Below, piece after piece: positions 45,101 through 59,206 of a DNA stretch of 64,000 bases. The translations under genes were made by a program, and so were the position numbers. A model generated the notes under the pieces. That model ran no database searches. It was given only the letters and a program-made list of their open reading frames with translations, and had not been told where the DNA came from. Numbering within the stretch: position 1 is the first letter of the stretch; each line of letters starts with the position of its first letter. The stretch is from Chrysomallon squamiferum (Eukaryota > Animalia > Mollusca). The stretch is from NCBI GenBank assembly GCA_012295275.1, contig CM022666.1, forward strand, positions 11,532,001 through 11,596,000. Direction: 5' to 3'.

Positions 45101-48100
45101 GAGATATTTTGGAGAGCTGATTTCTATGTTTCAGAATGAAGTGTTTACTATCAGAAAGTCTGCTCCCAGTGTTCCTGTCAGAAGTCCTGACACTCGACTC
45201 TCAACCTTCTCCATCGGCAAAGTTCCAGTACGTTCTCCTTTAACCTCTCTCACTGAACATACATACAATTAATTGACATTTAAGATACACATATATTAAA
45301 AAAAAAAACCTGTTTATATATATGTTTACAAACATATAAATACACTTTGATCGAATGCACAAACACATTTTTTCTCTCATTCATTCAGTATTCCTTAAAT
45401 GTTCAGAATATTTATTTATTTATTTTATTTTATTTTATTTTATTTTTTTTATTTTAGTATGTTTTTGTTTGTTTGTTTTTGTTTGTTTGTTTTTGTTGTT
45501 TGTTGTTGTTTTTCTGATACAACCAAACTGAGATGTTTATTTTACCATGTTGTTTAACATTTGAGTTAACAGTTTGAACTAGTTTTTTTATTAACTAATT
45601 AACATCTGAACAAACGTGAACAGAACCAAGTAAATAAAACAACATGAATTTATTTTTAAAACCTACTGGAATACAGGTAGTTTCTGTAAGAAAGTTATGT
45701 TTACCTGTCTTTAGTCTCTCTTTATTATATAATTTGATTTCACAGTCTCAGTCAGAATTGGTTAACAAACAATCACAGATTGATTGATTACATCAGATAT
45801 TTCAGTATGTTGTAAGTAATCCTGTTAATTCACACTGATACTAAAGTCATGTGTGTTATATAGAGTTTTTTGCCTAAAATATTAATAAAAAATAATAATT
45901 TAATAATGCTGTATCAATTCAGTACTAACAGGTTAGGACATTTTGAAATAAATGACATGTCGGTTAGTGATCAAACAATTATAAACAAAGAATTCTTACT
46001 TTTGCAGCCATCACCTTCATCTGACAGTGGCATATATAATGAACCTGATGTGTTTGACAGCAAACCTCAGAGGCCATCTTCACCAGCAATGAAACAAACA
46101 CAGTCACCACTTCACAAAGAAAATCGGCCTTTTTCATATGGAGTCAACTTCTCACCAAAACATCAAGATCAGTCACAGAAACATTCAGGCTACCCATCTG
46201 AAACCAACGGTTACAGAACAAGATCAAGTTCAGGAGCCAGTTCGGGAAGTTCAGAGTCAAACTATGCTTACACAAGGTGGATTCAGAATGAGCCAGGGCA
46301 GCATGAGTTACCTCCCCCCCCTGGTGAATACCGCAACATTCACTGTGTAGCAGCCGGTCAGACCGTTCACCACGTAGCACCTCACTCGTTTGTTCCTCCC
46401 GCTCAGCAGCAGACTCATCACTTCGACAAGCAGGTGCAGCAGCTGAGGAGCAATGTGATGGGTAGTCCTGTCAGACAGACCACTGCTCAGCACAGACAAG
46501 AAGTCATCAGTGAGTTCACTCACAGAATCTCACAGCCAGGAAGTCCTTCGTCGCCAAAGTTACATCCTAAAACCACTGAAGCACGAATTGCTCCATACTC
46601 GAGTGAACAAGACATTGCAAACCTTGTCCCACCACCACCATCGTTTCCAGCCCCCCCACCACCAGTGTCCCCCTCAGACCGGTACCTAGCAGCCTGGCAG
46701 GAGAAACGATCACCATCCCCCCCTCCTCCCCCTCCTCCACTGGTGTCAAAGAAACAAGACAAGACATACATGTCACCTCCTTCCTCCTCGAGTCAAGGCC
46801 TGTTTCCCACCGCTGTGAACCCCCCTCCACCTCCTCCACCAATATCAACAATACCAAGTCAACGACCACGAGACAAAGAAATTCCTGTGTCTTCCAAGAC
46901 AACCAGTCAAAACTCTTCAGTGTCAGACCAACTGCCCTCCGCACTGCTGGCTGAACTGTCCAATATCAAACTGAAAAAGACTCACAACACTCAAGGTATG
47001 TTAAATGTAATAAAATATGTGTTAAATTGTTTCCAGCTAACGCACATTCTTTTATACAGAAAGATTATTTATCATTTTGTTATCATTTAAACCTGGAAGA
47101 GTTATCCTAGCTTTGTTCTTGCAGTTGCTGAGGCAGTGGTTGATGCTGGGGATGATTTGCCACCACCACCACCCCCACCAGAACTGGAGCCTGTGAAACC
47201 TGTTGCGGTTGTAACAGCTCTGACCCCAGAATCACCACAAGCAAATTTCATAATACAGAAAAAAAAGAAAGGTAAGTTTTCCTCTTCTGAAATTAAAGTT
47301 TCAAACTGAAGAAATGGACAGTTTTACAGTTTCTTCTATTCATAAAATCTGTTGCATTATTTCAGTTAATGTTTTTATAAATTAATTTCATTCAGTAATT
47401 ACTAATTACATTGTAATTTGGTTAAGGTTTGTGTTTGATTAAATTTTCTCCAAATTGCCAATTAATGTATGAGTGATGGTTGAATATAGGACTTTGTATT
47501 GGTGTTTTTCTCTGTATAATATGAAATGGCAGCTTTTTTAAATTTAATCTCAATAAAATATATTTTAAAGGCTAAATTGAGCAGTATATGTTTCATTAGT
47601 GTTTAAAATTGGCTGAATTATGAAAATAATGTGTTCATATAATTAGTATTATCAAAACTGCAAATGCTAAAATTGCATTTGATCCACTTGATTATATAAT
47701 TAGTAAATATGGATATTAGTTTACTTTTTTATTTGTTTAGAAAAAATGTCTGATCTGTTTAAGCTTTTTGTCTTTGGTAACAAAGAGATCAAACATAATT
47801 CTGGTTTGTCATTATTTAATTGACACAAGAATTATCTGTACTCGAACAGATAAAAACAATATCAAAAAAGAAACCTATTATGATTGTTAAAAAGGAGATC
47901 ATACAAATTGTATAGAAGGTTAGCCACCAACAAGAATGAGATCTGGTGGAGTTTTCCAAGAAAGTAAAAATATAAATATCTCCCTCATTAGGAAATGGAA
48001 ATAAATGAATGCTAACCAATATTTTTTTTTTTTTTTACTTACTTTACTCTGCGTTACTTTACTTTACTTTACTTTATTTTATTTTACTTTACTTTACTTT

Positions 48101-59206: not shown

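Follow-up and report, generated by a model that had tools for sequence, protein, structure and literature searches.

A predicted class XVI myosin of Chrysomallon squamiferum with a C-terminal module related to that of espin and forked

Introduction

Espin is needed for hearing. The C-terminal 116 amino acids of espin are described as monomeric, helical and sufficient for bundling, with actin sites near both ends; this activity depends on the first half of the forked-homology peptide (PMC2132824, PMC2173610). Espin isoforms are reported to arise from different transcription starts (PMC3953818), and espin has been described as restricted to animals (PMC3748353). Together with myosin IIIa or IIIb, espin-1 forms a system in which a motor of the III/XVI group is joined to an espin-type actin module (PMC3942036, PMC4738386).

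The class XVI myosins are the second relevant group. According to one review, vertebrate MYO16b/NYAP3 consists of a MYPT1-like element and ankyrin repeats, a motor, one IQ motif and a long Pro-rich tail; this tail is disordered and holds the WIR, the NHM (YxxM) and Pro-rich sequence, and no bundling module is mentioned in the available part of the review (PMC7464383). The same source treats MYO16 as vertebrate-specific. A phylogenomic study dates class XVI to the base of the animals (PMC3942036), and an invertebrate member is therefore not news.

The window analysed here is a stretch of 64,000 nucleotides of AT-rich animal DNA from Chrysomallon squamiferum (contig CM022666.1). It contains a gene that shares the ankyrin repeats, the motor, the single IQ motif, the long Pro-rich tail and, as far as a sequence pattern indicates, a MYPT1-like element with vertebrate MYO16b. 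In contrast to the vertebrate protein, the tail is devoid of YxxM, the KVxF motif is degenerate and the C-terminus is formed by a WH2-like motif and a module with three Trp motifs. With espin and forked the predicted protein shares the order of Pro-rich sequence, WH2 or WH2-like motif and three-Trp C-terminal module, the spacing of 36 residues between motifs 1 and 2 and, probably, short isoforms from internal starts. Unlike in espin and forked, the module sits on a myosin, and the ankyrin repeats belong to a MYO16-type N-terminus. The myosin III system requires two polypeptides and has an N-terminal kinase, whereas the gene in the window is predicted to encode one polypeptide with ankyrin repeats. 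No myosin with an espin-type module was found in the titles and beginnings of abstracts searched, among which subscription journals are sparsely covered. The searched terms are also absent from the supplement text of PMC5583752, as far as it was accessible; the figures of that work may depict invertebrate class-16 architectures.

Results

Overall structure of the gene

The gene was modelled with 35 exons on the forward strand (17,926–59,206, +). All 34 introns are of the GT-AG type, and the joined exons can be read without interruption over 1,856 codons. The encoded chain of 1,856 residues comprises ankyrin repeats, the motor, one IQ motif, the Pro-rich tail, the WH2-like motif (residues 1625–1639) and three PxWK[RK] motifs (residues 1725, 1761 and 1823), in this order. 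The nearest database protein is the myosin-XVI-like protein of Gigantopelta aegis, with identities of 73% in the ankyrin region, 78% in the motor and 83% in the module.

Exons 1–6 (17926–20974, +) encode a putative MYPT1-like N-terminal element and the ankyrin repeats, as judged by Pfam, ortholog identity and sequence patterns. Pfam detects ankyrin repeats in exon 3 (E 1e-16) and exon 5 (E 7e-12). A search of the PDB with an ankyrin-bearing exon returned generic ankyrin proteins, nothing informative on the myosin class. Ankyrin repeats N-terminal to the motor are a trait of class XVI, and RefSeq names the orthologs myosin-XVI-like. The pattern RxxQ[VI]xxY is present in the window and in five orthologs; RxxQVxxY is presumably the MyPhoNE (MYPT1-like) consensus. 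In the PP1-docking motif KVxF the valine is replaced in the window and in Gigantopelta, and VxF is kept in abalone and scallop.

The myosin motor is encoded by exons 8–25 (21727–29978, +). Its P-loop (22633), switch I (23238), switch II (25964) and relay motif are all intact. The motor is 78% identical to that of P0001, which matches the Pfam family Myosin_head with an E-value of 2e-198. Among the 60 listed of 179 PDB matches there is no vertebrate MYO16 or MYO3 sequence. In the gene model, a single IQ motif and a helical neck follow from the end of exon 25 to exon 27 (29963–31093, +). The IQ motif scores weakly in the orthologs (E 0.19 and 0.005, below the Pfam cut-off).

The tail starts with exons 28–29 (44309–45227, +), which are defined by splice joints in RNA and contain a conserved Met (44398). 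They also contain the motif PxxPxRxPxTxLS (45165–45206), which is found in 10 of the 15 proteins scanned, including that of Lingula, and has no Pfam support. We take this motif to resemble the WAVE-interacting region of vertebrate MYO16/NYAP. No NYAP family was matched by Pfam in the tails of the window gene and its orthologs, and the C-terminal 760 residues of the modelled protein lack YxxM. Exon 30 (46008–46995, +), most of which is covered by RNA contigs, encodes a Pro-rich disordered tail segment with two poly-Pro runs and ends with the WH2-like motif. A third poly-Pro run is located in exon 31 (47125–47271, +), to which a contig piece of RNA run X3 maps (47123–47258). Thus, the polyproline runs described upstream of the Trp motifs in an earlier note on this DNA amount to three runs of seven prolines.

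The conserved C-terminal module begins in exon 32 (54546–54596, +) at Met 54569, as indicated by the model and by ortholog starts. PxWK motif 1, a charged helix and PxWK motif 2, which together make up the unit homologous to espin and forked, are encoded by exons 33–34 (57396–58119, +), assigned by profiles and the predicted helix. Exon 35 (58958–59206, +) provides a linker of variable length, PxWK motif 3 and the stop codon; its match to the Pfam family VHP (E 0.008) is below the cut-off. AATAAA is found 3' of exon 35 at 59435 and 59466.

Further features of the window lie upstream of the gene and within intron 27. An array of a 42-bp unit extends over 4 kb of this intron (33125–37180), and a 55-bp unit is repeated in six copies upstream of the gene (4654–4995). 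A long open frame on the reverse strand (8434–9420, −; 328 amino acids scanned) contains two hydrophobic stretches and matches the Pfam family APD1-4_M (E 2e-14). A decayed reading frame with stops is present at 12480–13200; it resembles, we assume, the N-terminus of a Tigger/pogo transposase.

The WH2-like motif

A WH2 had been proposed for the end of exon 30. The letters at 46938–46982 (+) are as noted, and the label derives from likeness to the published espin WH2: the combination of a helix and LKKT resembles, by eye, the sequence NSELLAEIKAGKSLKPT printed in PMC2173610. A Pfam match did not result. PF02205 was found neither in exon 30 nor in the isolated window motif nor in three orthologous motifs, and a PDB sequence search with the motif gave no matches. 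The Pfam family likewise matched none of five invertebrate espin-type proteins, and the Lingula ortholog reached an E-value of 0.31. The pattern recurs in 11 of the 14 orthologous tails scanned, one chance match aside. The motif at 46938–46982 is likely a WH2, as far as can be judged from its letters.

Motor and module in one predicted chain

A whole or partial motor and the module are present in one database model in nine species, which are eight molluscs (Gigantopelta, Haliotis asinina, H. cracherodii, H. rufescens, Patella vulgata, Nucella, Argopecten and Pecten) and the brachiopod Lingula. The module is carried by 14 of 15 motor-bearing records, which is no unbiased count because most of these records were found through the tail. 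The fusion of motor and module suggested in the earlier note is seen as one predicted chain in the window and in these nine species.

Exon 30 was detected in RNA from a single study (four runs) and in a further run of unrecorded kind. Contigs of X1, X2 and X3 (RNA) and of X5 were placed on positions 44,200–54,800. The splice joints 44481>45135 and 45227>46008, both GT-AG, are present in all three RNA runs mapped. Neither joint is found in X5, the contigs of which cover the introns continuously. X5 also shows a 6-base insertion at the acceptor of exon 28 (44307), by which the exon would grow in frame. The spliced contigs extend 5' of exon 28 by 580 (X1), 397 (X2) and 106 (X3) letters, known by length only; if colinear with the model, the extension of 580 letters would pass the IQ exon and reach into motor exon 23. 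With the RNA mapped up to position 54,800, the linkage of motor and module in this animal is predicted from the reading frame and from orthologous proteins that are gene models as well.

The tail exons might mainly constitute a separate motor-less gene, with the fusion due to infrequent read-through or to annotation that joins the two parts over the 13-kb intron 27. Such a gene would fit the tail-only models that start at a conserved Met (Patella X2, Biomphalaria, Bulinus), and the RNA contigs that were read directly span exons 28-29-30 and no motor exon. Haliotis rubra is annotated with separate motor and tail proteins; however, these pieces end in apparently off-frame sequence. Furthermore, exon 27 is free of stops and its junction with exon 28 is in phase, fused models exist in nine species and Patella has both forms at one locus. 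In the X1 and X2 contigs the match continues for three letters of the intron and then breaks off, as the end of exon 27 predicts, which is a weak argument in the same direction. We regard a separate tail gene as improbable. Judged from the compared sequences, the domain architecture is genuine and has been kept in molluscs and in a brachiopod.

Tail-only matches were obtained from Biomphalaria, Bulinus, Physella and Mytilus. For heterobranch snails (P0019, P0021 and P0005), motor-less tail models alone were retrieved.

Structure of the C-terminal module

The three PxWK[RK] motifs are located where the earlier note had placed them (57440, 58078 and 59102, +), each on an exon of its own. No further match to this pattern exists in the six frames of the 64-kb window. 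Motifs 1 and 2 are spaced by 36 residues in every molluscan tail compared, Nucella having an extra duplicated copy. A third, C-terminal Trp motif is present in all complete molluscan tails compared; its distance from motif 2 differs among molluscs, with values between 61 and 147 residues.

The sequence between motifs 1 and 2, which had been described as helix-like, is predicted by AlphaFold2 to form one helix (residues 26–58 of the orthologous module of Aplysia, block pLDDT 90–94). In the models of 13 short orthologs, helices follow each Trp and the linker preceding motif 3 is disordered (mean pLDDT 64).

At E≤1, single motifs of the module match the Pfam family Phostensin_N in 13 of 13 members, with E 6.5e-6 at best, and the villin headpiece family in 12 of 13. 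Phostensin_N is the best match; the earlier note had mentioned that motifs similar to those of espin occur in phostensin and taperin. The similarity to phostensin/taperin and villin headpiece comprises single PxWK matches of about 20–30 residues and no full headpiece fold. Identity with the villin headpiece was rejected: of the four residues of villin that engage actin, Trp and Lys(+1) are present in all three motifs, Lys(+6) in motif 2 only and Phe(+12) in none. A search of PDB sequences with the module profile returned just four matches at chance level. Foldseek with the module model gave no match at E≤0.001, and four of its eight weak rows are headpieces (E 5.6–9.5 over 24–30 residues). The best match of VIA-align (Z 4.9) corresponds to generic helices. 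In the Atlas, espin (0.82, 0.79) and phostensin/taperin appear as leads, all under its bar of 0.9. No Pfam family specific to the espin bundling module was among the matches, and the solved structures searched provided no match to this module.

The prevalence of Phostensin_N among the Pfam matches and the lack of a match by sequence or fold among solved structures would also suit a different role, in which the Trp motifs form amphipathic helices that bind proteins in a generic way, as parts of a phostensin/taperin-like scaffold that has no action on actin here. The N-terminal 260 residues of taperin, on the other hand, which include its phostensin-like stretch, are reported to bundle F-actin (PMC12139522), and the studied relatives espin, taperin and villin headpiece all act on F-actin. 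A pure scaffold has little probability in our estimate.

Relationship to espin and forked

A profile of 13 mollusc-type sequences was searched against 1.84 billion proteins (E≤0.001). This mollusc-only profile gave 136 matches, including proteins named espin in RefSeq from abalone (Haliotis), limpet (Patella) and tick. The two Trp motifs are exactly 36 residues apart in 70 of the 128 new matches; the next commonest spacing occurs in 18. Pfam scans of 48 longer new matches revealed seven proteins with ankyrin repeats and the C-terminal module, three with WH2, two EPS8-like proteins and one myosin, and no vertebrate myosin was among these 48. Names were looked up for 20 clusters, which comprise espins, the Lingula myosin-XVI-like protein and proteins of choanoflagellates (Monosiga, Hartaetosiga and one more). 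P0101 is a fragment with no database name; we read it as a vertebrate espin because its motifs resemble those that the earlier note gives for espin. P0086 (Sel1/TPR) matches the profile and has no Trp motif; it was treated as false.

Conversely, a profile of eight espin-type units was scored on the window unit. The score of 41.6 bits compares with a maximum of 10.7 bits in 2,000 full shuffles and of 28.0 bits in 2,000 shuffles that left both Trp motifs in place. This reciprocal result is favoured to some extent, because the eight espins were first found by the mollusc profile. Against the second half of the espin profile, the third Trp motif obtains 13.3 bits. Identity of the module to espins is 17–21 of 66 residues. 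The proposed kinship of the tail end with the espin-type module is therefore upheld by profiles that agree in both directions, with shuffle controls. On this basis the module is related to the actin-bundling module of espin and forked, as a predicted homolog.

Separate ankyrin-espins are present in Haliotis rubra, H. asinina and Patella vulgata, and abalone and limpet also have the myosin. As gastropods keep a separate canonical espin, the module is paralogous and the myosin has not swallowed the espin gene. A module tree was calculated from 44 units and 68 columns, with unnamed rows labelled by motif and Lingula as a long branch. In this tree, 15 espin/forked units are on one side of a branch (96/91), with no MYO16-tail unit among them; 18 MYO16-tail units are on one side of another branch that is not firm (73/98). 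Orthology of the window gene to espin was rejected in view of the separate espins in the same species and the position of the module outside the espin/forked side of the tree.

The MYO16-type module is also found in tail proteins of the annelid Lamellibrachia and the flatworm Macrostomum; no motor was seen in those records. In the choanoflagellate proteins P0070, P0087 and P0110, two Trp-helix-Trp copies are located on EPS8-like (PTB, SH3, SAM) and WH2-repeat proteins. Espin has been claimed as animal-restricted, whereas the module occurs in these proteins as well. Thus, the espin-type module appears to be older than animals.

Motor-less products and internal starts

A conserved Met, which corresponds to position 44398 in the window, is the common start of the tail-only models of Patella (isoform X2), Biomphalaria and Bulinus. 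In Patella, the fused and the tail-only isoforms are annotated at one locus. Shorter proteins are found too: 10 of 27 short matches and one cluster member have 165–223 amino acids and contain all three motifs. The module-only orthologs begin at the Met equivalent to 54569 or shortly upstream of it, four of them exactly at this Met.

A candidate internal first exon is located in intron 31 (50200–50417, +), based on one X1 contig and on the consensus donor at which it would end. This single contig covers 50200–50415 and has 28 further letters of unread sequence. Spliced to exon 32, the candidate exon would give three short upstream frames followed by a module-only protein of 156 amino acids from Met 54569. 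Because shortened gene models would also begin at Met 54569, the short product counts as inferred. By chance, 1.9 consensus donors are expected in intron 27 and 0.7 in intron 31. A donor at 43425 in intron 27 was considered for a tail-only first exon and rejected, in view of this chance expectation of 1.9 and of a pattern that was chosen post hoc. Low-depth intronic RNA contigs at 49.5–53.3 kb were set aside, as they could be pre-mRNA or DNA.

The module-only proteins of many gastropods and the one RNA contig point to a short isoform that would start from a promoter inside the gene. Probably, the locus also makes motor-less products by means of internal promoters. Additionally, short proteins named 'espin' or 'espin-like' in RefSeq, P0012 of Aplysia and P0023 of Littorina, match the MYO16-tail module (P0012 57%) and not canonical espins. 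This suggests that the short gastropod RefSeq 'espins' of these genera come from the MYO16 locus.

Discussion

We propose that the window encodes a class XVI myosin whose espin-module tail cross-links the parallel actin bundle along which its motor moves, and we assign this reading a probability of slightly below 60%. The tail would cross-link parallel actin filaments and the motor would carry the protein along the bundle. By analogy with espin, the Trp motifs may act as ATP-independent F-actin sites that are held apart by a helix whose length is fixed; the poly-Pro runs, together with the WH2-like motif, may gather profilin-actin and G-actin. In the villin headpiece, the WK pair has been mutated and implicated in bundling (PMC7525818). 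One chain would combine the tasks that are divided between myosin III and espin-1. Class III myosins are reported to be dispensable for espin-1 to reach the tips of mouse stereocilia (PMC4738386), and the analogy with a motor and its cargo loses weight for this reason. Internal promoters would yield the motor-less tail and the module-only product, the latter presumably a small-espin-like bundler.

Instead of bundling, the module could grip F-actin as an ATP-independent tether, with a single-headed myosin inching to protrusion tips and its tail delivering signalling partners. The presence of one IQ motif only, the crutch mechanism described for MYO3B and espin-1 (PMC4738386) and the linker of 61–147 residues between motifs 2 and 3, which is unlike a fixed cross-link, are compatible with a tether. 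The spacing of 36 residues between motifs 1 and 2, however, is kept as in espins, and the module-only proteins of many gastropods would have no motor to tether. Tethering is rather unlikely, and a self-bundling motor is the preferred reading.

A broader reading is put forward tentatively, and we hold it to be possible rather than probable. Trp-helix-Trp may be an ancient mobile actin-bundling domain of pre-animal origin that was placed separately on espin/forked and on the myosin XVI of spiralians. The spiralian MYO16 locus might then be organized in three tiers: with the help of internal promoters it would yield a self-bundling motor, a scaffold made of the tail without the motor, and a bundler similar to small espin, and would build microvillar bundles with one gene.

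Myosin XVI has been studied as a neuronal signalling scaffold, and a module-bearing myosin would link that field with espin bundling. The alignment of the wider family defines the conserved core of the espin module as a pair of PxWK motifs with a spacing of 36 residues; this core may be addressed by mutagenesis, which bears on espin deafness alleles. For the question of how motors and cross-linkers set the length of protrusions, the predicted protein would represent a natural one-chain counterpart of the myosin III-espin pair.
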